The position numbers and the translations under genes were made by a program. The notes under the pieces were generated by a model that saw nothing but the letters and a program-made list of their open reading frames with translations, was not told where the DNA came from and did no database searches. Positions 48,101 to 64,000 of a stretch of DNA of 64,000 nt are shown in pieces. Positions within the stretch are counted from its first letter, which is position 1, and every line of letters begins with the position of its first letter. The stretch is from Camelus ferus (taxonomy: Eukaryota): assembly GCF_009834535.1 (NCBI RefSeq), contig NC_045696.1, positions 11,162,001 through 11,226,000 on the forward strand, written 5' to 3'.

Positions 48101-51100
48101 TGGTTAGGTGGGACCAAAGCAACATTGAATCTGGGACGAACTTTGCCCCACAACTGAGGTGAAATCCTCTGAGCACTCTGCCCTAGCCCGTGAGGATTCC
48201 GCCCTGGCTGGTGGGAACAGGAGCTATTTCTGGGCATGTGTGAGCCCAGGGTTGTCTCCGCCCATCCCTTTGGGTGCTTCTTTCCCAGCCTTGGGTGGCT
48301 TCCTCTTGCGCCCTTGCTGACTGGCACTCACTCAGCTGAAGACTGACACTCTCTCAGTGGCACGCTCTTCTCCAGGACTCTGCCTTGTCACTTCTGCCCC
48401 CTCGACCTCCCAGGTTCCCACCTCATCCACTCAGAGTTCCCCAGTCTCTGCCTCGTTTGCCTCCCAGTGCAACTCTCCAGCTGGGACGCTCAGAAGGTCG
48501 CCTTGTTTCCCATCTCGCAGGGACCGCTGTCCTTTGTTGCTTCGTGTCCAGTGTCTTGAAAGTCCTGGGTTCATTCCTTCAGTCATTTTTTCGTTGCTTG
48601 AGGTAGACAGCTGAATCTGGTTCCTATCACTCTCTCCTGGCTGGAAGTAGAAATCCTGGTTATTCTTTGATATGGTGTAAAAATTGAAAGACAGAGGAGG
48701 GGAGCTGTATGTAAGCGGCCCGCCCCCACCAGTCTGCCCTGGGTGGGATGCTGGCAGAGCTCCGAGGACCCTGCTGCTTCTGAGGGAGGGCAAACACAGC
48801 TCGCCCAGTGGGTAGGTCCCGGTCCCCTGGCGTGCCTCAGCCTCTCAGACCTCATCACCCCCAAGCAGAGCTGCAGGCATGGCCACAGGTCTCCGCTTCA
48901 TGGTTTCTAGTGACTTCTACACTTTGGGACAACCACCTATTTGGAGACCATTATGCGATTATGTAGCTTTTTGGACTAAGAAGTAGCTGATTATTATCAC
49001 TTTTCTTCTTGATTTACTCTTAGTTTGTTTTTGTTTTTAACTGCAAGCATTATTCTTTTAAAAGTCTAACTTTGGAGAGAGAAGAGGAAAAAAGAGTTTG
49101 ACTTTTAAAAAATATCATCAGTGGTATATGACTTATTCGGGATAGTCATTTCAGTTGGTTTATGTTTGGTTCCTAATTTAACTGGGTCACCAGTCCCTCA
49201 TTCTAGGTGATTATCATGGCCAAATACTGCATAGTCATTTTTAAACTAAGTGACCTAGGTCTGTTCTGAGGTTTTTCTTGACAGTATTTATATTGTAAAA
49301 AGGCCTGCGTTTTTACTAAAGAGGATTTCAAGTGTCCTGAATTTCAGGTGTGGTCAGGTGGGTCCCCTCATGGATCTGACCTTCTCTCTTGGTCACATCC
49401 TCTCCTGGAGCGATATGAGTTTCTCAAGGCCTCACAGGTGATGAATGGATATTAGTCAGCAGGCTCTCTGGCTGCAGCTTTTGCTCAAGCTCAGTGAGCT
49501 GCTCTTCTGTATGATTTTTGTCGTTTGTTTGAAGAAAGAACTAGGGTTGCAGAGTGGATATAAGTTAATCCTTCGTCAAATTGATGGGCCAGCTCAGGCT
49601 GGTTTGCACTGGCTCAGTTTCCCAGCATCACTGCCTTATGTATTTTCCTTGGCGGCATTTGTAGTTAGGAGCTCAGAGGCAGCAGGCTGGATGAGGTAGA
49701 TACCGTGAGCTGGCTTTCCTGCTGGCACCCAGTGGGACCTCACCTCTGTTCTCTGGCTCATTGAGTATTTGTGAGACGTAATGAAAGAATCCTGGTTGGG
49801 ATTTACAAGCATCTTAAAAGCTGGAGGCATGGTGATGATTGGCATGGAAGGGGAGATAGTCTTTTATCCGGTGTCAGAAGAAGTGAAGGGGAGCAGGAGA
49901 GAGACTTGCATTTCTTGTATCTGGCACACACACGTAGCCAACAGTGGTAAAATGCAAAAGGAAATCGAATTCTCCGTGTTGCACAAGCATTGCGGAATCG
50001 TGTGTGTGTGTATTTAATGCTTTATTTTATTTCTCGTAGAATTTGTGGTGGATTGTCGAAAATTTGTGGATTCCAATGCTCTGGGCCTCACCGTCATGGC
50101 CCTCAGCAGCTATGACCCCCAGATGCGAGCAGCGGCCTACTCCGTCCTGGCGGCCTACTACTCGCAGCTGGAGGGGGCGCGGTTCCGGGAGCAGTCCCAG
50201 GTGAGCAGGTGGAAGGACCCCTCAGGAACACAGAGGCGTGTTGCCAGGAGACCTGAGATAAAGAACAAAAGTCTGTCCCCTCCTGGGGGATGATGCTAGA
50301 GGTGGAGAGAGGTCTCCCCTTATAAACGCTCTTCTTGCATTGTGGGTGGGCAGAGCAGTTCTCATTTCTGTCGACTGTTTCCCTGGTCTGAAATCAGAGG
50401 TTATAACAGCTGTCATGCAGGACATATGAGGCCTCAGAAGCCATGCCCTGAGCTGTAGGGAACAGGAGTCACCTTTGGTGGTCCCCCAGGTGTGAGGAGG
50501 ATGCCTACAAAGCTGTGGTTTAGGCTGCTTAAGACCAGGCTGGTCACAGCTGTTCTGAAAATTCTCTTTTTTCCCCTTTTTTCTTGGTTTTAAGGTACTG
50601 TATCTCTTGGATGTTGTCCGGAATGGGATCCGAACTCAGAACATGAGACTCACCTTTATCCTGGCTCTCTTCATTGCCAAAGCAGCCCTGCAGATTTTGA
50701 AACCAGGTACCACTGATTGAAATCTGTCATAAAACTTTTTTTTGTTTTGTTTTAGTTAATGGTGAAAAGTCATAGAGTGTTGGTACTCTTAGAGACCACA
50801 TTCTTTGAGCCTAACGTGGTCATTTTCAGATGAGGAGACAGCCTCCCATCCGAGGCCCCCAAGGTCAAATAGCTTGTCCAAAGCCCCACAATTAGTCTGA
50901 AGTCAAGTTGCCATTAGAATTCAGGTCTGATTTTTATCTGTTCCTATATCATTTTTATTATGTGGTTTTTTTCCTTTACTTTAGAAATTATGGGAGGAAA
51001 GAAGGTAGTTAAGCATTTGTAGACTCTAAAGAAAATCCCAGCAGAGGTCACAGTGAATGGTCTCGGCCTCCTGTCCAGTCCGTGCCACCTGGGCGAGCCG

Positions 51101-54100
51101 TGTCCCACCTGAGACCTCATGTCGGGGTCAGGGCGCAGGGCAGCAGTGGTCGTGGGTGGGCTCTGAGGCTGCAGGCGGTCTGCACAGATGGGAGGCAGTG
51201 ATCCGAGGGTGGAACGAGGGGGAGGAGGTGTCGGCCCCGTTGCACTCTAGAGCCAAGTGTTCCAGGGCATGTCTGAGCCCTGTCTTCTCTGTGGTGGTTC
51301 CCTCAGTGAGAGGCCAATGGGTTGGGTGTTAGCTGTGCTGTCTTATGTGAGGCCAAGCCTGGCTGATTGGAGCTTAGGCAGGAGGCTGATGACTGGGCGA
51401 GGGGAGCGATGTCTCCGAAGGACCTGACATCCAGGAGTGGTTTCTGAACCACGAGGGAAGCCTGTATGCGTGCAGAACTAAGGTGTCCTACTGCATTTTA
51501 ATTCTTGAGAACTAATACCCTGGACAAGGATTAGAAAGCCCCCAAGGACAGGGATTTTTGATGTTTGATGTCCAGCCCCTCACTTGCCTGCTCCAGCCGA
51601 CCGCGGGGTGTCCTGCTGGCACCTCTGTGAGTGACTGTCTGCCTGTGTCCACAGAGGAGCACATGTACCTGAAGGTCAACAAGTTCCTGCTGTCCCACGA
51701 GTACCTGAACATGAGCAAAGTCCCGGGCTTCTACCAGTTCTTCTACAGCTCCGACTTTGAGGTACTGCTCCCGCAAAGTCTCCCCAGTCACTTTCCCGGC
51801 GCCCCCGTCCAGGCTGTGGGCTGTGCAGCATGGGTGGGACAGGAGGCCAGGCGGGTGGGGGCGATCGCAAGCCTGCGTGCAGAGGCACTGTCCAGCCCAC
51901 GCGGTGACTCTTAGGTGGCTTCTCAGACGTCGCAGGGCCCTGTGTGTCATGGTATCTTCGTTCTATTCTTTTGGCGAATCACTGGATCGAATATTAAATG
52001 TGCTTTTAGAGGACACCCCCCTGAATTAGCACAGTTCAGTGTTTGAACTTGACCTGGTCCTTTATTCCTGACCTGAAGAAGCCAAATCAGAGAAGAGGTG
52101 GAGGACTTTTAATAGCACGTCCAGAAACAGGGGGTTGGGGCTGCGGTGCCGCCGTCTGTGCCACCACCCGAAAATCGTGGTGTTTGAAGGGTTTCCAGAG
52201 ACAAGGGCCTTCACTTACTCAACTAGTGTCTTGTTTGCTTGGGTTACAGCAAAAAGCGGAACAGGAGTGGGTGTTCGGGATTCTGCGCCAGGGGCTGCGG
52301 GACAAGCACTGCTACGAGCTCTGCGCGCGGCGGGGCGTCCTGCACGTCCTGCTGGCCTTCTTCCACAGCCCACTGTGCAGCGGCCAGGCCCAGGTAGGCG
52401 GCGTCAGGGGGCCTGAGGCTCCGCCCTTCCTCCGGGTCTGTTTGCAGGTCAGGTCCGATGGATTCTAACTCCAGCCTGACCCACTAGTTTGACATGAACT
52501 TCCTGTGCCCTCGCCCGAGGGCGGGGCCTGCGAAGAGGGAGGAGCTGTTGAGTAATCACGAGGCTTTGAGAGTTCTGGAGACACGTGGCCCCCAAAAACA
52601 AGTGAGGTGCTTGGAGACACTCAAGCCGCCAGGACGTCACGTGGTGCACAGAAGCCATAAGACATCCAAACTGGGAAACTAGGGCCAGGGGTCGAGGCTG
52701 CCCGCCTCGCAGCAGCTGACGGGGGGTGGGGGGCATCGGCAGTAAGCCCCGCCCCCTGCGGCGGGAGCGCGTGCGGAGCGTGTACACGCAGGGGCCGCTG
52801 GGGGAGTGACTGGGGAGCCTGTGGCATTTTGATTAATTCCTAGTGCGGTCAGCTTTTGTTTCTGATATTATGTACAATGTGGGTAAACAGCAGTGACTCA
52901 GGACTCAGAGACACATTTGAATAAACTGAATTTAAATAGGGTAGATTCTTATTTTTTATGGTTTGTGAGCATTCTAGAGCACCCAGTTAGCAGTTCTGGG
53001 GACAGTCCCGTCTTTCTGTCCTCCTTCCCAGGTGGTAGAATTGAGGTGATGAAATGAGCCTTCAGCAGCTCATGGCTGGGCTAGAAATGGGTCCGCATTC
53101 TCTCCCCACTCAGGCTGCTGCGGATGCAGGCCGTGTGGTTTCCACACTGAGTCTTTGCTGGTGATGGATCAGCAGACGTAGCGTCCGCCCGGGCCAGTGA
53201 CTGCTGTGGCGGTCTGTGTCCTCTAGCTGTCGCTGGTGGGGAGAGGGGTGCTCCCGCATGGCCACCACTCTTACAGACTTAGCAGATGTCACATGCAGCC
53301 ACCACCTATCATTGTAACATACCATGCTGTGGTTTAAAGTATTCTTTTGATCAAATGAGTCAAGTTTCCCCACTGAAGAGTGACTTTTTTGTTTTGGGTT
53401 TTCAGAATTGGATTTTGGAAATACTGCAAAATGCTGCCCGGGACGCCAAATCTGCCTACGAGATCCTGCGGGACTACAGCCTCTTGACATGGATCTTACA
53501 CATCTTCGAGAGCAAGTGAGCACCTTGTGTGTGAGAGACCTTGTGTGTGAGAGGTGTGTGTCAGGCAGAAGGCGGGGACGGAGACAGTGGCATCTCCCTC
53601 TGGCTCTGGTGTCAACTGGAAATATCCAGTAGCATCCATGTTCTCCGACACAGCGTCCTCTACCTACCTGTCACCAACCTCCTGGTGATGCCAATATGGC
53701 ATTTCTTCACTTTAAATCTGTCTTCTGAGCATCTTGTCTGCCGTGGAGTGACAGGCGCCAGCTACTGCCTGCGTTTGGTGGAGGCTCTGCCCGCCGACCA
53801 ATCTGTCCTAGCTGCGCAGCCCAGAGGCCTCCCCTGGAGTGGTGTCCTCCATCTGAGGTGTCAGGACAGCTGCCCTGCCTGAGGTAGAAACCAGGAGCCC
53901 TCAGTGTCAGGAGCACTCGTTTGGCGATGTGGGTAACAGCCCTCCACTCCCGCCCAGTGTCAAGGTGCTTGGGGAGGGGCCAGTGCCCGAGTGTGTCCAG
54001 AACCTGGTGGGCATTTGTCCTGTTATCTGGGGGGACTAACCACTAGGGTTCAGTTTCTCACTGTTCTGGAGGCCGAAAGTCTGAGATCAGGGGCCAGCAT

Positions 54101-57100: not shown

Positions 57101-58172
57101 AGCCCACGGACCAGGCCACCCCCGAGAGCGAGGCCCCAGGCGCCGTACACACTGTCACCTCCCTGGTGGCCAGCTGGGCGCTGCACTCGGTGGCCGAGAG
57201 CCCACTCAGCGGGGCAGGGGCTGCCGGCCTCCTGGGCTGGCTGAAGAGTCACGTTGTGCCACAGCCGCTGGTTGTGGCCGACCTTCTTCAGGACGATGCC
57301 GTGAGGAGCAGCTTATTTCGCCTGTATGGCCGGCCCTGCGACGCCGAGGGGCTGGCGGGGCCCGAGCAGGCCATGGCCTGCCTGCTCAACACGGTCATGC
57401 TGCGGCTGCTGGCGGCCCGGGGTCCCGCGGGGAGCGCCGTCCCGCCGGCGGTCGAGGCCCTCCACCTCTCCTCTCTGAGTGCGGAGGATGGAGCCACACA
57501 GGGTAACGCGGGGTCCTGGGCTGGGGGCTGAAGAGATGGGAGAGTGGGCTTGGGGGTGAGGAGCACCTGTTCCTTAGAGCCTGTCAGGTATTGTTGGTTA
57601 AGTATTTGGGCCCCTTATCACCACGTGAAGAATTACGTTTCTCATCGTGACCAGACGTGTGCCTTGTGTGTGTGCGGGCACGCAGGTCCCACAGTTTACA
57701 TGCTTGGCGTCTAGCAGGTGCTTAGTAAAGGGGTTTGACTACACAGATGAAGAAACAGCAAAGGCCGCAGGAGGGCGAGATTAAGCCCAGAGTTAAGCAA
57801 AGGCAGAATTAATTTGTTTTATCTGCGCGTTCACCGCACGTTGCATTTAAGGGCTTGGCTGAGCCTGGGGCCCCGTGCACGTGGGCGGGTGACTTGTGGG
57901 CTGGTAGATTGCGTCCTAATGGTCCTGTTGTCCCTTCCTCAGCCACTGCCACATTCCTGGTGTCTCTGTACATTAAGGATGTCTGGCTCGGGGCCCAGCG
58001 GCCAGACACCCTCTTGACCCACATCCAGATGGTCCTCGACGCCGCAGAGGATGCGCAGGCTGGTGACGAGGAGGCCGTCGTCAGGCTCTGCAAGGACATC
58101 TCAGCCCAGTGCCCCGCTGTGGATGCCCAGCCGGCCGGTGCCTCCAGCTCCGGCTTCTGGGACTCGGGTTGA
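1..58172 (+). CDS. URB1: URB1/NPA1 ribosome biogenesis factor, 37 coding exons (human exons 3-39), 5' partial, about 2177 aa in window after correcting one extra base
   Basis: Spliced translation is colinear with recalled human URB1 from DLSHFHVVGTNIVKK to FLVSLYIKDVWLGAQRPDTLLTH; all introns GT-AG with compatible phases except the +1 in exon 4; synteny with MRAP. Confidence 0.98.
240..625 (+). mobile_element. L2 3' end relic
   Basis: CAGTGTCTAGTACGTAGTAGGTGCTCAGCAA terminal motif; boundaries approximate. Confidence 0.65.
999..1132 (+). CDS. URB1: URB1 exon 4 (apparent +1 frameshift at 1099-1101)
   Basis: MARACLNLMAAMVTQGPEAARDVCSHFDLNKKT, then YTLVTKRDSK in the shifted frame; cag| acceptor, |gtgaga donor. 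Confidence 0.93.
2009..2145 (+). mobile_element. tRNA-derived SINE, Vic-1-like (camelid)
   Basis: GGGAGGGTATAGCTCAGTGGTAGAG (A box), GGATTCAATCCC (B box), AAACCTAATTAC body, A-rich tail, degenerate TSD. Confidence 0.85.
4590..4795 (+). mobile_element. MIR SINE
   Basis: MIR core CCTCGGTTTCCTCATCTGTAAAATGGG and 3' end TGGCACGTGGTAAGTGCTCAATGAATG. Confidence 0.85.
5768..5864 (+). CDS. URB1: URB1 exon 5
   Basis: GVPDVRLAYIQFALSFLIAGDDSTVGQVLELK; cag|...|gtaggt. Confidence 0.95.
6920..7330 (+). mobile_element. L1ME-type relic
   Basis: CATTTATCCTAAGGAAATAAT and downstream L1 3' motifs; boundaries approximate. Confidence 0.55.
8006..8091 (+). CDS. URB1: URB1 exon 6
   Basis: FIPCIFSSGIKEDRISTINILLSTLKTK; ttcag|...|gtacgt. 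Confidence 0.95.
8410..8835 (+). mobile_element. L1ME-type relic
   Basis: GGTTAAATAAGTTATGG..GGAAATATACCAAAA; boundaries approximate. Confidence 0.55.
8881..9006 (+). CDS. URB1: URB1 exon 7
   Basis: VVHNKNITKTQKVRFFSGQVLNHIASLYSWNGIVDVSLESIE. Confidence 0.95.
9834..9883. repeat. 24-bp perfect tandem duplication containing palindromes
   Basis: TGTTTAAAAATACAGGTTTAAACC x2. Confidence 0.95.
9985..10215 (+). mobile_element. MER21-like LTR fragment
   Basis: TCACTCAGAAAATTATAAGGGTTTTAAGAGCTCTGTGCCAGGAACTGGGGAC. Confidence 0.6.
10906..11030 (+). CDS. URB1: URB1 exon 8
   Basis: TSAEDAGKAMVRELVHNFLTDLCCSLKHGINFYDASLGTFG; |gtaagt. Confidence 0.95.
11330..11480 (-). mobile_element. MIR SINE
   Basis: CCCAGTTTTGCAGATGAGGGAACTGGGCACAGAG. 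Confidence 0.75.
12290..12540 (+). mobile_element. L2 3' end relic
   Basis: ACAGTGCTTGGCACGTAGTAGGTG terminal motif. Confidence 0.65.
12557..12756 (+). mobile_element. MER58A-like hAT DNA transposon relic
   Basis: AAGGGTTGGCAAATCTTTTCCGT..GGGCCAGATGGTAAGTATTTTAG. Confidence 0.7.
14179..14374 (+). CDS. URB1: URB1 exon 9
   Basis: GGNLTLLHFLLGLKTAADDELV...WLNNIKLLNK. Confidence 0.95.
15433..15570 (+). CDS. URB1: URB1 exon 10
   Basis: IYDAQPDISRAFQTKEFIPLPRLL...MFTQALN; |gtgagt. Confidence 0.95.
18105..18275 (+). CDS. URB1: URB1 exon 11
   Basis: LDSKAVKHTALSLISVILKRALKT...FREALSK. Confidence 0.95.
18875..19004 (+). CDS. URB1: URB1 exon 12
   Basis: ILPDLNTIVWVWQSFRKQETKQDDEKGKK...APQS. Confidence 0.93.
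19400..19580 (-). mobile_element. MIR SINE
   Basis: CCCATTGTTCAGATGAGGACACTAAAGCATAGAG..CCAAGGTCACAGC. Confidence 0.75.
19746..19862 (+). CDS. URB1: URB1 exon 13
   Basis: DAETILLKAVLLQVICLYQKVVPHVVMQYNFDFSKLLK. Confidence 0.95.
21681..21793 (+). CDS. URB1: URB1 exon 14
   Basis: VISEEGLREEVPPILQHHILKVALELPASKFLWLKAQ. Confidence 0.95.
23638..23757 (+). CDS. URB1: URB1 exon 15
   Basis: EGPDAEIIGGKRSVFYLLMKMFVTSSHSQLKSSTKLLIVK. Confidence 0.95.
23935..24155 (+). mobile_element. MIR SINE
   Basis: GGTTTGAGTCCTGGTTCTGCCACTT..AAGTTGCTTGGCCTCTCTGAG. Confidence 0.75.
25231..25347 (+). CDS. URB1: URB1 exon 16
   Basis: ILRDTGVFEHTWKELELWLEHL...IQFLER. Confidence 0.95.
25802..25940 (+). CDS. URB1: URB1 exon 17
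   Basis: VLLTLVANPYSYTDKASDFVQEAS...VSHID. Confidence 0.95.
26150..26390 (-). mobile_element. MIR SINE
   Basis: CTGAGGCACAGAGAGGTTAAGCAATCTGC..GGATTTGACTCCAG. Confidence 0.8.
26622..26685. repeat. 27-bp tandem repeat, about 2.4 copies
   Basis: TCTTGCTCATCCTTYCCTGGGGKTCCT. Confidence 0.9.
26738..26908 (+). CDS. URB1: URB1 exon 18
   Basis: VLDMVDVLVEGSEGLDEEIG...NKLLLGTENEA. Confidence 0.95.
27297..27655. mobile_element. Old MLT1-type MaLR LTR
   Basis: TGTAATTAGTCAGGA..GCTGCAGTAACAGATAAGCCCC..CTCAGGGATCCAGGCTG. Confidence 0.6.
27928..28121 (+). CDS. URB1: URB1 exon 19
   Basis: DSIVAYLTGVLTDLLHTQRDPLALCLLLQ...WIPEPAREAL. Confidence 0.94.
28448..28678 (+). CDS. URB1: URB1 exon 20
   Basis: PLQTSGSPAPP...LLLYVRSTVENFGQ; a second in-frame CAG ends at 28456. 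Confidence 0.88.
29341..29520 (+). CDS. URB1: URB1 exon 21
   Basis: LGKSTGPPLLQFLLDLLRRLVVHCEQLDAQNQQ...LELANDK. Confidence 0.95.
30392..30429. repeat. 14-bp tandem repeat, about 2.7 copies
   Basis: GGGTCACTCGGTGG. Confidence 0.9.
30999..31851 (+). CDS. URB1: URB1 exon 22 (853 nt)
   Basis: TLEEVLGAILRHPTLEGW...YLQCRARGPFTRPAG; lies inside the 300-aa ORF 30990-31892. Confidence 0.97.
32575..32765 (+). mobile_element. MER63-like hAT relic
   Basis: CAGTGGCGTGCTGGTGAATGTTTAA..GTAGCATTTACCAATTTCC..TTTCAAGCTAC. Confidence 0.65.
32798..32999 (+). CDS. URB1: URB1 exon 23
   Basis: SSAVIPVLRKALWRQLQ...APGSHK. Confidence 0.95.
33186..33412 (+). mobile_element. MER20-like hAT DNA transposon relic
   Basis: GTGATTCTCAACCAGGGGTGATTTTGCCC..TTGGCAATGTCTG..CCAAATGTCAGTAGGGCCGAGG. 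Confidence 0.8.
33662..33845 (+). CDS. URB1: URB1 exon 24
   Basis: WMVADSISAVLEESAEELCAW...MLLRLNELL. Confidence 0.95.
34060..34670 (-). mobile_element. Old L1M fragments
   Basis: TTTATATATTGTTGGATTTG..TTAAGAATTTTTG..TATACTGGCCTCA; boundaries approximate. Confidence 0.7.
34701..34905 (-). mobile_element. Unidentified poly(A)-tailed retroposed fragment
   Basis: T11 tract; direct repeats TGAYGCATCC(T)n at 34691 and 34906; TTTT/AA at the right end. Confidence 0.65.
36177..36235 (+). CDS. URB1: URB1 exon 25
   Basis: NSLNEVDPGAWQKFVKTGL; catag|...|gtaagt. Confidence 0.93.
37341..37506 (-). mobile_element. tRNA-derived SINE, Vic-1-like (camelid)
   Basis: Reverse complement of the same head with A and B boxes; poly-T tail; TSD TTGATGGGAG at 37327-37336 and 37508-37517. 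Confidence 0.88.
37913..38106 (+). CDS. URB1: URB1 exon 26
   Basis: YRYQDHAFLKALC...QHSLFLPTLL...DSHVK. Confidence 0.95.
39116..39226 (+). CDS. URB1: URB1 exon 27
   Basis: ALVDLMSVVVRMCPSVCKNSHFAVLLGAYGATLSIL. Confidence 0.95.
39232..39316. repeat. About 30-bp G-rich minisatellite, 3 copies
   Basis: GGTGTGGRGACYGGGYGGWGGGA at 39232, 39261 and 39292. Confidence 0.85.
39387..39450 (+). CDS. URB1: URB1 exon 28
   Basis: QKILLLLRAYEQNNLSLIDF; |gtgagt. Confidence 0.95.
41740..41995 (+). mobile_element. MIR SINE
   Basis: TTTGAATTCCTGCTCTGCCGCTTACCAGCTG..GGGGATGATAATAGCACCTAC. Confidence 0.8.
42219..42390 (+). CDS. URB1: URB1 exon 29
   Basis: VLLWGPAAVEHHKTCRSLGKSLWQQPSVGDILRLLDRD...LLPRE. Confidence 0.95.
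42756..42858 (+). CDS. URB1: URB1 exon 30
   Basis: DAQELIFKDKSTADLDGLYDPCFLLHLFSELTRP. Confidence 0.95.
43365..43910 (-). mobile_element. L1 ORF2 C-terminal relic
   Basis: Minus-strand translation TPCTKINSKQISDVNVKPTTIKL...GIGKDFL and MQIQTTLRHH resemble L1 ORF2p. Confidence 0.85.
46548..47028 (-). mobile_element. 5'-truncated L1 3' UTR with 12-bp TSD
   Basis: L1 3'-end-type sequence; ATCCTTTTACTT at 46536-46547 and 47029-47040. Confidence 0.8.
47041..48690 (-). mobile_element. Old L1M fragments
   Basis: Motifs such as TTTCTTGTAGACAG..ATCCAGTCTGAC..CCATTTACATTTAATGT; boundaries approximate. Confidence 0.7.
50040..50200 (+). CDS. URB1: URB1 exon 31
   Basis: FVVDCRKFVDSNALGLTVMALSSYDPQMR...FREQSQ. 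Confidence 0.95.
50595..50706 (+). CDS. URB1: URB1 exon 32
   Basis: VLYLLDVVRNGIRTQNMRLTFILALFIAKAALQILKP. Confidence 0.95.
51655..51761 (+). CDS. URB1: URB1 exon 33
   Basis: EHMYLKVNKFLLSHEYLNMSKVPGFYQFFYSSDFE. Confidence 0.95.
52250..52393 (+). CDS. URB1: URB1 exon 34
   Basis: QKAEQEWVFGILRQGLRDKHCYELCARRG...SGQAQ. Confidence 0.95.
53406..53515 (+). CDS. URB1: URB1 exon 35
   Basis: NWILEILQNAARDAKSAYEILRDYSLLTWILHIFES. Confidence 0.95.
53522..53553. repeat. 16-bp tandem duplication next to the exon 35 donor
   Basis: ACCTTGTGTGTGAGAG x2. Confidence 0.9.
54015..54376. mobile_element. MLT1-type MaLR LTR
   Basis: TCTCACTGTTCTGGAGGCCGAAAGTCTGAGATCAGGG..CCTCCCAAAGGCCCC..CCAAATACAGTCACATTAGGGGTTA. 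Confidence 0.8.
54978..55175 (+). CDS. URB1: URB1 exon 36
   Basis: FLETPLLSNVISLLHTLWVTNLGD...VLLKHL. Confidence 0.95.
56365..56606 (+). CDS. URB1: URB1 exon 37
   Basis: PTLASTQLTSFFETLDSVLRYRATV...QVRELL. Confidence 0.95.
56903..57502 (+). CDS. URB1: URB1 exon 38
   Basis: MLKDKNKPVMPARAKGPRGRKRRPGE (basic NLS-like stretch)...AEDGATQ. Confidence 0.96.
57943..58172 (+). CDS. URB1: URB1 exon 39 coding part, TGA stop
   Basis: TATFLVSLYIKDVWLGAQRPDTLLTH...GFWDSG*. Confidence 0.95.
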
Positions 58173-58339
58173 GCTGAAGGTTCCCGTGGAAGGCCTGCGA
58201 GATGACCGTGTTGTATATTGACTCGGTGTCCTGACAGGAAGTTGACTTTACTTAATTGACAAATAACAAGCTCAGGGGACTGTGTGTGCAAGGTGATCAG
58301 AGTCACAGGGGGCTTGGGGCCTTCGGGCCACGAGCAGGG

Positions 58340-58429
58340 AAGACCCTTCTTAGGGTTTCATTGTTCCTCAAAGAAATACCTCAAATTGAGGTAGCACTTC
58401 TGAGCACTTAAGGGATTCGTGGATGTTAG
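58340..58429 (-). pseudogene. MRAP: Out-of-frame counterpart of the human MRAP-beta terminal exon
   Basis: Minus strand tttcag|CT AAC ATC CAC GAA TCC CTT AAG TGC TCA GAA GTG CTA CCT CAA = NIHESLKCSEVLPQ, versus recalled human beta NTDESLLHSEVLPQ. Confidence 0.75.
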
Positions 58430-58443
58430 CTGAAATGTCCAAA

Positions 58444-58697
58444 AATAAATCAAGCTCAAGAGCATGAAGAGAGATGTTGAAGTTTCCTTTCTGTAGGAAA
58501 TCATGACAACAACTTGTGTGGCTTTTTGAATAAATAATCCCTGCCAGTGTTGTGTTGATTTTTTATTAAATAAAAAGATGTCAAAGTAAATCCTTACAGT
58601 ATCAAACTGACTTGACTTCTGCTTTGGGAAGATAACCTGCATTTTTTTAAATTGTGTTTCAAAGAAGGGATTGTACTTTTTATAACTTGTTAATAAA
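58444..58697 (+). terminator. Cluster of candidate URB1 polyadenylation signals
   Basis: AATAAA at 58444, 58529, 58569 and 58692; the last is followed by GT/T-rich sequence. Confidence 0.65.
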
Positions 58698-59895
58698 TGT
58701 CTATTTTTGTTAGGTTTCTGTGTTTTGCTTAATTGATGTTAATAAGCTACTTTTATTCCACAGAGACTTGCATTTTAGAGGTCAGATTTGACTTTTAAGA
58801 TTCCTTTGTTAATTGATGTTGTAGCTGACACATGCTGAATGAGGAATGTCATGGGTTTCCCAGATAAAATTCGGTCCTGTTCATTTAAAGCTCTGCGTGT
58901 ACCCACATCCCTCCTGCACACCTGGGCTCCTGGGAGTCTGCTGGGCCCTTGTCCCATGTCAGCACACAGCATCCCTGTCTGTCACCTGAGAGACGGCCGT
59001 TTATTTGCCCGGATGATACATACAGCACTGAGAATGGCTTGGTTTCAGCTTAAACACTTACCTTTCTGTTTACCTCCAGTGGTGTTTAGACTTTCTTCTG
59101 GTTTTTTTAATGACTTGGAAGATTTTTACCAAGAGTAATGCTGACCTGCACATGTCCCCTTACCACAGATAGGGCTCATTGACTAGAAAGCAAGGACCTG
59201 TTACCTGCCCTTTTCCCTCCCCCACAAACCCCCACAGTGATGTTCGTAGAATATTCTGAAGCCAGAATCCTTGGTTTCGATTCAAGTTGGAAAGGCCATG
59301 TATTCCCCTCTCCCGCTTCCACATCCCTGGGGCCCATCAATCTCCCTCCCCTCGTCTTCCCTTCCCACCACTGCCCCCAAGTCTGGCCCTCACCTCGGGG
59401 GACTTTTCTTTAGTCACCTGGGATGGGGGGGTGTTTATGGGTATGTGGCATGGTGCTGGCTCCTGGCCAGGGGCAGACTGTCAGGCACTAAAGAGCTAGG
59501 GTTTTGGGGGGTCTCACATCAGAGGTCACATGAAGTCACACCCAATATGGCACCCTCCTGCCACTTGGGCTTAGGCCCTGTCTGCCGGGCCAGGCTGCTT
59601 CCTCTGGGGAGACGCCTCCTTGGGCTCTGTCAGAAGTCTCGGGGAGGTCAGGTGTGATTCAGGTCCCTTGACCACAGTCAGTGACCCTGGCCAGGCACAC
59701 ACTGTTCCATTTTGGTAACAGTGACTATCAGTGGCAGATGGATGGGAAATTGGCAAGCCCTCGCTGGGCGTCCTGAAAAGAGACAGATCAGCCAAGCCAA
59801 CTCAGGGCCGATATTACAGAAGTAACAGTTGAAACTGAAAAGTGGCATAAAAAGATTAGTGAGTGAAGACTTTCAAATTTTTAATTCATACATAC

Positions 59896-59901
59896 TTTAT
59901 T
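59896..59901 (-). terminator. Candidate MRAP polyadenylation signal
   Basis: TTTATT on + (AATAAA on -), about 315 nt past the MRAP stop. Confidence 0.65.
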
Positions 59902-60215
59902 TCCAAATATTTCTCCCCTTCCCAAAGCAAGCATAAGCAGTAAGAAGGAGCTCAAGTAGGGTAAATAAAATGAGCAGTCTGGACTATTTCCCTCTGCTAG
60001 GTGGGTGATTGCCGGCCTTGGATAAAAGCAAACATGTGCCCACTTGTACTGTCATCTTGCCTAGGTGCACGTCCTGCCACTGTGAACGGGCTTTCAGAGG
60101 CACGTGTGTGTCCGGGTTGGCTGGAGTCCCCCGGTTCCCTCAGCAGCGGCTCCGGTCGGTTCTACGGTCAGGAGGTTGTGTCTGCAGGGGAGGCTCGCTG
60201 GGCTCGTTCCCGATG

Positions 60216-60489
60216 TCAGCGGATGCCGTGCGAGTCCGCGTCGAGGGCCAGTTCCCAGAGGAGAGCGGTGGGGGCCTGGGGGGTGGTGGGGGGCGAGGTG
60301 GAGGGGCTCTCCAGCTGCGGCTGCTGCTGGGCAGGGCTGGCTGCTCGGCGGCCTGATTCCTCACCCACGCTGGGTGGAGGCTGCGGGGTCCCCTGGGGGG
60401 CCCTGTGGCACAGGCAGTGCCTCCAGACGCAGAGCGGGAGGTTGAGACTGAGACTCCAGCGGCACATGGAGTGGCGCTGCGTGCTGTTC
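60216..60489 (-). CDS. MRAP: MRAP last coding exon (alpha-type)
   Basis: Acceptor tccacag|; NSTQRHSMCRWSLSLNLPLC...PTALLWELALDADSHGIR*, resembling recalled human NSPKHHQTCPWSHGLNLHLC...PTLLWELTL; phase 2 matches the TM exon. Confidence 0.9.
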
Positions 60490-62334
60490 CTGTGGACAGA
60501 GCAGATGGGGGGCAGGCATCCAAGCTGCCTGAAAGCAGTCCTTCCCGGGGGCTTTCCTGCTGCACCCTCCTGCCTGTCCAGGTCCCATAGGGGAGGCTTC
60601 TGGGCAAGAAGTCCTCTGTCAGGGGAGCAGTCCCCGGGGAGGGTCAGCCCGGCTCATCCAGGTCGCCCAGGTCGCCATGGTGGAGAAATGGAAGAGAAGA
60701 GGAAGTGCTTGATGGAGACCCTGACCTTGGGGCTTCCCCTTTGACCTCTGGTCACAGCTGGGGGGGTGAGGGGGAGGGGCAGGTTGACCTTCCCTCCGTC
60801 CACGTGTTTGAGTGTAGTTCATCTCATATCCATGCCTCAAGCCTACTTGTATCTTAGCCAGAAACCCATCCTCCCTGGACAGAGCCTCCTGCACTCGAGA
60901 TGCTGGGGGCAGTGGGCACGTCCCGCCTGCCCTCACTTTCATCAATGAAATGGGACTATAATTGCCTCGTGGGTATCATTAGGATGAGATGAAGCGATGT
61001 ACTGATAGCTGTCTAAGCTAGAGACCTAGTTTAAACATGGTTATCAGTGAATGAAGAAGGCCAGGAAGGGAGCATGAGGGAGCAGAGTCCTCCTTTCTGA
61101 TGATTCAGATGATGGTAGCATGATTTTTTCTTTTTAAGTGTGGACAGAACCTTGGGAAGCAACTTGGCATCTTCATTCCTAAATCTAACTAAGCACCCTT
61201 TTGGCTGCCCTGAGCATTCCTCATCTGTTAGAAAGTTCCTGGAGAGCATTTTCTTTAGTGAGCCATGTGGCCAGTCAGGGCAAACAGTGTCAGCATTTCG
61301 CCCTGTTGTAAAATTGTATGTAGCCCAGAAGATGCTCAAGACCCCTGTGTGCCCACAGAACCGGGGAACTTTCCACTTGCAAACTGTTGTAGCATAGGGC
61401 TTGCTCTAATTCACCTCAGAAGAGCAGAAAAGAATGGTAATTTCATTAGTTAGTCCCTCAGGGATCTCTTAGGGGTAAATATCGGCTTAGATTCGATGTG
61501 AGTTCTAAATACTGAAAGAAAAGAATGGATTTCTTCATTGCTGGAAAGCCAGTCCCTGCCTCCCACGTGTGACCCAGAGAAACCAGATAGAGAAATGACC
61601 TGTTGTGTGTAGACCTGGTGGATGAGACACTGTGGGCAGGGTGAGTGGGGGAGGGGGTAGAGGAAACAGAGGCCCCTCGAGGTGGGTCTGTCCACAGGTG
61701 CTCACAGGAACGGGCAGTGGGACCCTCTCGGGCACAGGGGCTGCCATCTCTGGATCTTTCAGGGGCTTAGAGGCTCCTCATCCCTTCCTGTCCCAGAACA
61801 GCTCTGCTCACCTCTCCCTGCTACCAGCCTCCTAGGCTGACATGGTTTCCACTCCCCAAGACTTCTTGGTCCACAATGGATTCCAGTCCTGTCTTCCTCC
61901 TGGTCCCCCAGGGCCTCCAGGTGCCAGCTTTCCTGCCAGGCCTCACGTGCCCAGGGGCATTGGCCAGCCCTGGACCAGCCATCTCCTGGTTAGCTGCCCA
62001 CCCCGGTCCCATCAGCTGCGGCCGGGAGAGAGATGGTATAGGGACCCTAGTAAGCACTGTCACCGGGGCAGCGGTAGCTGCATTGGGCAGATGAAGCTAC
62101 CTGGGAGAACCGGACAACTGTCTAGTAAGGAGAATTAACAAGTCCTGAGCTCGGCTCGAATCACTACTCGGAACTCATAGATTTTACCCCCAATTTAATT
62201 TACCCACTGAGGCACACAGTAGGCATTCAATGACAGACAGTGGCCATAGATGCCTCAGTGAGGGTCCCATTTTCCTGGTGAGCTGGTTGGCAAGACCTAA
62301 CTAACACAGAGAGTCACCTTGGCTTCACTGTCTG

Positions 62335-62710
62335 CAACAGCTTAACTGAGATCTGTTTTATACACAACGAAATTCTTCCTTTTAAAATGTAAAATTCAGT
62401 CATCTTTAGTATATTACCCTGAGTTGTGTGACCACCACAATCTGTTTCAGAATATTTACACCATTCCCCCCAAAATCCCTGTACCCGTCGGCAGTCACTC
62501 CCCTTCCTCTGCCTCCCCCAGCCCTAGGCGACCGCTAGCTGTTCTCTGTCTCTACAGGTTTGCCTCTTCTAGGCACTTCACATCCCCGGAATCGCACGAC
62601 GGTGGCCTTCAGTGTCTGGCTTCTCTCACGTAGCCCGATGCCTCCAAGGTTCATCCGTGTTGCAGCATGAACCGGCTTCATTCCTTTCTGTGGCCAAATA
62701 ACATTCCACC
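62335..62710 (-). mobile_element. L1MB-type 3' end
   Basis: GAGTTGTGTGACCACCACAATCT..TCCAAGGTTCATCCGTGTTGCAGCATG. Confidence 0.75.
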
Positions 62711-62779
62711 CTGAGGACAGATGGTCACTCCCTACTTGGCCGGGTAAGTCACCACCGCCCCCGCGCCACCCTTACTCAC

Positions 62780-62879
62780 CTGGTCTGCGAGGGGCCTGAC
62801 CAGGACATGTAGAGCAGGATGAGGAAGAGAAACAGCACGAAAGCAGCCAGGCTCACCCAGAAGGCGATGACGATCGAGT
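62780..62879 (-). CDS. MRAP: MRAP (melanocortin 2 receptor accessory protein) transmembrane exon
   Basis: 100-nt exon [32 protein letters not shown]; acceptor cccgcag|, donor |gtgagt; the first coding exon lies outside the window. Confidence 0.96.
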
Positions 62880-64000
62880 CTGCGGGAGGGGGACACGCGT
62901 CTCCACGTCAGTGAGGGAGATACGGGCCCCCACGTGCTGTGGGAACAGGGCCCTGAGTGTAAGCGTTCCTGGCTGTGACCAGGGAGAAGATGTTTCCATT
63001 ACCCTTGAGAAGGAACAGGGCAGCAGGGACCTGGCTTTTTCCCTGAGCCACTGGCCACTGGGTCAGCTTAGGGTGGACACTGAGTGGAAAAGAGTAACTG
63101 AGATTAGGTGGCATCTCATGGATTTGTTTTATCGGCTGCTCCTGCTGCTCAGAGGATGATTTCCGCTCCCGTCTCTCTCCCTGGGAGGGAGAAGAAAGAT
63201 CTGTGGGAAACCTCGTGCGGCAGACTGGCCTCCCCTTCCCAGTGAGGGCTGCGGCCCCTACCAGGAGCCTTTCATGACCAGCCCATTGGGGACAGCTTCA
63301 GAGACCCCAAGATGAGAGACTTAGAGAAAGGATGTGTGCAGACAATGGTGCCAGCTGCTCCACGGAGGGCCAGGCCCTTCCCTCTGCAGAGTAGTTAACC
63401 GTGGCCCGCCCTGGCCAGCCTGCTCGGGGACGTGGGGAGAGCTGGCCCCTTTCTTGGCGGTGGACAAGGGGCCAGGGGAAACCAGAAAAGACGCTTAGAC
63501 CTTTCCAGGCCCTGGGTCGAACCTCGCAGGTCAGGAGTGCCTTTTCTCTGGGGCTCCAGTTCAGGAACATTCGGCAAATTGCTAGGGAACTGCAGCCACC
63601 TGACAGTTTTTCTTGGTGGTTGTCTATGGCTGTGGGCACCAAGTACCAGCTCATAATTAGTGTCTGCAAGCATCTCATCCCAGACCCACATGCCCCAGGA
63701 TGAGATGCCCCCAACCGGGATGTGCTAGGTGCCTACATGTGGGACCAAAGGAGGCTACTAAAGGATGCTAATCAGCAGGTAGGTATTAAGCACCTTTGTG
63801 AGCCAGGTCCTGCTGGAGGCTGTTAAGGATTCAGAGCAGGCCAACCTGGCACCCCAGAAACCACTGACACCTTTCCCCTGCCCCTCCTCCTGCAGCATCC
63901 TCCTCGAAACCCCTGTTGTACCAGCAGCGCTAGCCCTGCCCTGCTTTCTGTTCAAAGAGATGTTTTTGTGTTGTATTTAAAGGAAAAGATGTTTATAAAT

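Follow-up and report, generated by a model that had tools for sequence, protein, structure and literature searches.

Organization of the camelid URB1/MRAP locus

The window, that is, the whole 64-kb stretch of Camelus ferus DNA that was analysed, spans C1:11162001-11226000 of the assembly and is the camelid URB1/MRAP locus, in which the two genes lie tail-to-tail (Table 1). The gene on the forward strand was assigned to URB1, because three exons above the cut-off of the Pfam family PF16201 (NopRA1) lie upstream at 50081-52390 on the + strand and RNA contigs run from 57942 into the untranslated region. MRAP lies on the opposite strand. Its transmembrane (TM) exon ends in ...CAG ACC AG/gt at 62780 and belongs to the Pfam MRAP family PF15183 (E-value 3.6e-15; score 56 bits, cut-off 27), and it has 100% identity with the MRAP proteins of Camelus ferus, C. 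bactrianus and Vicugna pacos. The N-terminal exon, which holds the start, was found on the same contig and strand, 11 kb past the end of the window. No Pfam family was matched by the last URB1 exons, the MRAP-alpha exon or the 64-aa frame over the candidate exon.

Table 1. Features of the URB1/MRAP locus, numbered from the first letter of the window.
Feature	Positions	Strand	Details and evidence
URB1 last coding exon	57942..58172	+	TGA stop 58170-58172; RNA contigs start at 57942, loose letters before
URB1 3' UTR	58173..58712	+	poly(A) tail after 58712; AATAAA at 58444, 58529, 58569 and 58692
Candidate counterpart of MRAP-beta terminal exon (human exon 6)	58340..58429	-	tblastn of beta tails; shuffle nulls
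Candidate 3' splice site	58430..58453	-	AG 58431-58430; C at -3; 11/16 pyrimidines at -20..-5
MRAP-alpha terminal coding exon	60216..60489	-	R-NSTQRHSMCRW...SHGIR, stop 60218-60216; tblastn of P0002 (60489-60219); RNA joint
Alternative MRAP terminal exon	62047..62077	-	S+YRCPGDSAY then TAG; tail of P0001
MRAP TM exon	62780..62879	-	phase-2 donor AG/gt, GT at 62779-62778; PF15183 match; RNA contig piece 62779-62879

RNA was examined over the region 57500-63000 in four of 24 listed runs, as contigs for X1, X2 and X3 (three studies) and as raw single-cell reads, about 1 in 100 of which were sampled, for X21. The URB1 3' UTR was deeply transcribed in all four. The URB1 contigs passed through the AATAAA at 58444 and ended at 58652 (X1), 58664 (X3) and 58712 (X2). 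The X2 contig closed with 17 A behind 58712, 15 nt past the AATAAA at 58692, and in the runs examined this last of the four hexamers was the only one with a poly(A) tail behind it. In X21 the first mate lay on the minus strand in 39/39 reads, which in most stranded libraries denotes + strand RNA, and the reads showed a 3'-biased peak at 58420-58603. The UTR also holds one ATTAAA, at 58565. At 58597 all four runs carried A (the X1, X2 and X3 contigs and 15/15 X21 reads) where the assembly has C, a difference due either to an error in the assembly or to a private allele.

The candidate exon sits antisense in the middle of this UTR. A first-pass annotation, made from the letters of the window alone, had placed a counterpart of the MRAP-beta exon there, and the mapped limits of the URB1 UTR agree with that placement.

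The candidate exon and its putative 3' splice site

On the minus strand the boundary reads cttgatttatttttggacatttcag followed directly by CTAACATCCACGAATCCCTTAAGTGCTCAGAAGTGCTACCTCAA, so that the first base of the candidate exon is the C at 58429, immediately after the AG. The block of homology (NIHESLKCSEVLPQ) occupies 58427-58386; similarity in the same frame reaches about 58374, and other frames are weakly similar as far as about 58340. Frame 3 of the candidate exon reads NIHESLKCSEVLPQFEVFL and then a stop. When the TM exon is joined at 62780 to 58429, AG+C gives Ser and the next codon is TAA (58428-58426), and thus no open frame continues in phase with the TM exon. The acceptor, the frame, the Ser and the TAA are letter for letter as the first-pass annotation had read them.

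A possible branch point for this acceptor is ttgAt, with its A at 58450. Its pyrimidine score equals that of the acceptor of the alternative terminal exon at 62077 (11/16 each). Taken alone the site is unremarkable: a crude filter, which asked for at least 11/16 pyrimidines and a pyrimidine at -3 with no upstream AG, was passed by 28 of the 629 AGs on the minus strand from 62778 to 55000. One of the 28 would start an exon at 58490, 60 nt from the candidate. This AG was considered as a route to in-frame use and was set aside; it is a plausible acceptor, but the sequence behind it has no homology to the beta exon. The AG at 58456-58455 was also rejected as an alternative acceptor, since the frame that follows it is unrelated to the beta tail.

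The T-run that precedes the candidate AG is the complement of the + strand AATAAA at 58444-58449. From this the first-pass annotation had suggested that one element may serve both strands. The complementarity is real, but URB1 polyadenylation at this hexamer is not, in so far as the contigs X1, X2 and X3 read through it; a double role of the element is therefore unsupported in these samples.

The candidate stretch occurs only once in the 2.09-Gb assembly. From 58268 to 58522 neither the contigs of X1, X2 and X3 nor the raw reads of X21 have an inserted or deleted letter, and hence the short spacing behind the first exon base is not an artefact of the assembly. This spacing, C-T-AAC, is 2 nt shorter than in human, as had been proposed.

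Homology to the tails of MRAP-beta

MRAP-alpha and MRAP-beta are described as human isoforms (PMC5292628, PMC8591103, PMC4461818, PMC6652236), MRAP-alpha consisting of exons 1-5 and MRAP-beta of exons 3, 4 and 6 or exons 1-4 and 6 (PMC5292628, PMC4461818). Among the papers searched on MRAP together with URB1, or on MRAP-beta, no title or abstract opening deals with the age of the exon or with its overlap with URB1.

Beta tails for comparison were taken from proteins returned by database searches. They comprised human isoform 2 (P0038, 102 aa, tail SFNTDESLLHSEVLPQTRAISCDELQAPREEGAA), beta-type models of apes (85 and 101 aa), of Old World monkeys (84, 102 and 103 aa) and of Aotus (P0113, 102 aa), the mouse lemur protein P0101 (83 aa, tail SFNIHESLLHSEVLL) and the dog protein P0135 (100 aa, UniRef A0A8C0TTM8, tail SLNIYKSLRCSEMLLQGLFFQEQQSREEGSTF). 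Searches of a word index returned beta-type tails from primates alone. That distribution was abandoned when a profile built from 10 primate beta proteins, run with HMMER in full against 1.84 billion representatives, retrieved the dog protein; the word index had missed P0135, itself a cluster representative, and absences from it count as weak evidence.

Twelve beta tails were compared by tblastn with the whole window on both strands. For eight of them (five hominoid, Aotus, mouse lemur and dog) the top match in the window was 58433-58374 or 58433-58392. E-values were 0.015-0.044 for the five hominoid tails, 0.001 for Aotus, 0.007 for mouse lemur and 0.003 for dog. Of 1000 shuffles, the score was reached by 6 for a 17-aa ape tail, 3 for Aotus, none for mouse lemur and 2 for dog. 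The full 34-aa human tail, one of the hominoid five, also found its best match in the window at the candidate (E 0.044), and its score was reached by 91/1000 shuffles because its long unrelated end adds noise. With the four Old World monkey tails, in which one Leu is missing, the candidate site was not the top match in the window, and was second for one of them. The queries are mutual orthologues, and hence these results are not independent tests.

Identity to the camelid block is 10/14 residues for human, 10/12 for lemur and 9/14 for dog, and a hand count places 13 of the 14 camelid residues in one or more of the four species human, lemur, Aotus and dog. The dog tail, SLNIYKSLRCSEMLLQ..., is alike at 10/16 positions when set against 58433-58386, and it shares with the camelid block a Cys that the primates do not have. 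The candidate site follows the alpha exon on the MRAP strand, and the similarity begins exactly at the AG. The junction residue is S or N in all beta-type proteins, which fits a first exon base C. Similarity above chance thus coincides with an acceptor at the equivalent boundary and with the same first base, and we regard the candidate stretch as very probably a homologue of the MRAP-beta terminal exon. The first-pass annotation's count of 10 identities in 14 with human MRAP-beta holds against the retrieved P0038, and so does the homology that it deduced from them.

Like the camelid stretch, human exon 6 gives Ser from AG+C, shares 10 of the next 14 residues and presumably lies on the same strand after the alpha exon. 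The camelid stretch differs in being 2 nt shorter after the first base, in reading Ser-stop, in having more stops downstream and in that its joint was unseen in four RNA runs. In gene maps, human exon 6 presumably extends over the 3' end of URB1 too.

A search with a 19-nt query from the block also returned an ocean metagenome scaffold, where the agreement covers 20 nt only and is attributed to chance.

Probable loss of the frame in camelids

(S/N)-(F/L)-N stands in frame at the junction in the dog model as well as in all 11 tabulated beta-type proteins of primates. In these species one base is followed by a full codon and then AAC, whereas the camelid has C, T and AAC, which is two bases fewer. 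Further on, the camelid frame continues after LPQ with FEVFL and a stop, and the Aotus tail can still be aligned for four of these residues (LKLF against FEVF). By eye, FFQEQ of dog resembles YFFEEQ in camelid frame 1 and EEGS of dog resembles EGS in frame 0; REEG comes later, in the same frame, in both primates and dog. The camelid sequence thus differs from that of the in-frame species by several insertions or deletions that are not multiples of three, and it has stops in the homologous frame. The predicted Ensembl/UniRef model of dog, unlike the camelid, remains in frame for 32 codons.

Dog, a member of the Laurasiatheria, is closer to camelids than are primates, which belong to the Euarchontoglires. 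The camelid shortening by 2 nt is therefore read most simply as a derived loss of frame: dog and primates flank the camelids in the tree and are both in frame, so that one loss in the camelid line would suffice. This polarity is drawn from protein models of two lineages, the dog entry being a predicted one. The first-pass annotation had left two directions side by side, an exon that arose from URB1 UTR sequence or one that decayed to it; the in-frame dog model favours decay. It had also described the exon as one known mainly from human and other primates. The exon sequence appears to be older than that, and with a dog model in frame its confinement to primates does not hold.

Splicing of MRAP in RNA

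The alpha joint from 62780 to 60489 (60488/9 to 62779/80) was seen in X3 alone, in one contig at a depth of 4.7, and over the four runs the alpha exon was the only partner of the donor at 62780 seen in RNA. No joint from 62780 to 58429 was present in any of the four runs (0/4), of which only X3 shows any MRAP joint and whose tissues are not given; a joint to 62077 was likewise absent from all four. The contigs are unstranded and drop rare variants, and in X21 even the alpha exon is without minus-strand reads, so that the missing joint to 58429 argues only weakly against use of the exon. The tailless MRAP that the first-pass annotation had proposed to arise from this joint is thus unsupported in these runs.

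On the minus strand from 58429 to 55000 (3.4 kb) there is no AATAAA or ATTAAA, the only related hexamers being AGTAAA at 58252 and 55562; a canonical poly(A) signal, as expected downstream of a coding beta exon, is therefore missing from this interval. None of the camelid MRAP proteins found (78, 143 and 184 aa) uses the candidate exon. No camelid MRAP of 69 aa was returned by protein searches that covered this length, the word-index search among them not being exhaustive.

Origin and possible use of the candidate exon

The camelid stretch is probably the relic of an orthologous exon which has lost its frame, is silent or rarely used and lies antisense in the URB1 3' UTR. Under this explanation the minus strand from 58429 to about 58340 would be the orthologue of the alternative last exon of primate MRAP-beta, also present in the dog model. 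It would have retained the acceptor, with its AG and moderate pyrimidine tract, and the first base C. Two bases would have been lost between this C and the Asn codon, so that splicing of the TM exon to the stretch would yield Ser-stop, with more frame shifts and stops behind. Camelid MRAP would be produced via the alpha exon. The stretch might persist as part of an abundantly transcribed URB1 3' UTR, or might simply not have diverged far enough so far. Both the non-use of the exon and the loss on the camelid side are the most likely reading of the evidence above.

By analogy with known truncated forms, the broken frame would be no bar to function. A Ser-stop form could work if it were made, since the C-terminus of MRAP is reported to be dispensable and most primate beta models, which end 16-17 residues past the junction, are already short-tailed. 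According to one review, MC2R trafficking and activation do not need the MRAP C-terminus (PMC4923161), in agreement with what the first-pass annotation had stated. A second review reports that MRAP1 constructs truncated at the C-terminus restored surface expression of the receptor, and it lists as functional parts the LDYL region at the N-terminus, the LKANKH topology motif and the TM domain (PMC5292628). All three would be present in the hypothetical 69-aa product, as in those constructs; the constructs are engineered, whereas the camelid product is read from DNA.

It is nevertheless unlikely that the acceptor is used in MRAP-expressing tissue, to give a 69-residue MRAP of N-terminus, TM domain and one Ser from a transcript antisense to the URB1 3' UTR. 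The acceptor and the first base are intact at a conserved boundary, the rescue by truncated MRAP1 shows what such a protein might do, and short-tailed MRAP models of 71-85 aa exist in other mammals. A stop codon in the last exon escapes nonsense-mediated decay, and the Ser-stop transcript, with its stop in the would-be last exon, would be expected to do so. Against these points stand the joint that was absent from four runs while the alpha joint was seen, the 3.4 kb of minus strand without a canonical poly(A) hexamer and, with little weight because the word index is not exhaustive, the lack of a 69-aa camelid MRAP in the protein searches.

The reverse order of events, in which the camelid state is ancestral, appears quite unlikely. 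The stretch would then have been non-coding URB1 UTR with a fortuitous AG, and the in-frame exon would be a later gain of primates and also of carnivores, whether independently or through common ancestry. The location in a UTR with high RNA depth in all four runs would suit such an origin, as would the T-rich acceptor tract that complements an A-rich UTR motif and the single MRAP form that one review gives for rodents (PMC4461818). But primates and dog have the same in-frame spacing and the same REEG, and one loss is more parsimonious than two gains.

Another quite improbable scheme is that the exon is an old alternative 3' end of MRAP, at least boreoeutherian in age, in which the peptide is irrelevant and the acceptor and the antisense overlap with URB1 are what is conserved. 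Camelids would then still make the 69-residue tailless MRAP, together with a transcript that could pair with the mRNA of URB1.

A chance likeness of a short peptide, with the stretch unrelated to the beta exon, is very improbable: the match covers only 14-20 codons, E-values in the window are only 0.001-0.17 and 91/1000 shuffles equalled or beat the 34-aa human tail, but tails from dog and from four primate groups all have this one site as their top match, shuffles of short tails reach the score in only 0-6/1000 cases, and the match, which lies downstream of the alpha exon on the MRAP strand, begins precisely at an AG.

Taken as a frame-lost relic, the camelid stretch makes the beta exon look older than the primates, being present as sequence in camelid and in frame in the dog model, while reviews present MRAP-beta as human. 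The camelid copy would be a natural example of a beta tail cut to a single residue and, if it is spliced, a natural test of the dispensability of the MRAP C-terminus. As it stands, it is an ordinary alternative exon decaying within the 3' UTR of a neighbouring gene, a matter of comparative annotation and no surprise.

Other short tails of MRAP

The 78-aa Camelus ferus model P0001 takes its tail from the exon at 62077-62047. It resembles the hypothetical 69-aa form in its short tail, in its use of the same phase-2 donor and in its Ser junction codon, and differs from it in that its terminal exon lies outside URB1, at a distance of 0.7 kb from the TM exon. This exon has a good acceptor, and the tail of rabbit isoform X2 (P0123) begins with SYRG; on this likeness the exon may be common to more than one mammalian order. 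If the intron past the TM exon is retained, the reading is ...SQT-R followed by TGA at 62778-62776, which would likewise yield a tailless MRAP of 69 residues.

The catarrhine tails were compared among P0038, P0097, P0106, P0109-P0112, P0096, P0098 and P0099. Ends in ...LPQT or ...PQT (84-85 aa) are found in the NCBI models of chimpanzee, gibbon, siamang, orangutan, gelada and red colobus and in the UniRef entry of bonobo (P0106). The position after PQT is R in human and W in baboon, both of which read 17 residues further, and exactly this one residue is missing from the UniRef models of 101-102 aa (gorilla, orangutan and macaques). In these protein models the pattern fits a stop codon after PQT in most catarrhines and a long beta tail that is open in few lineages.

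Very short tails, R-ANFVS and S-NM, end the models of the bats P0240, P0241 and P0238 (74 aa) and of the elephant shrew Rhynchocyon (P0121, 71 aa). ANF.. and NM.. are faintly like the camelid ...gct aac atc at the acceptor, over a very short length, and these tails may be further uses of the candidate exon.
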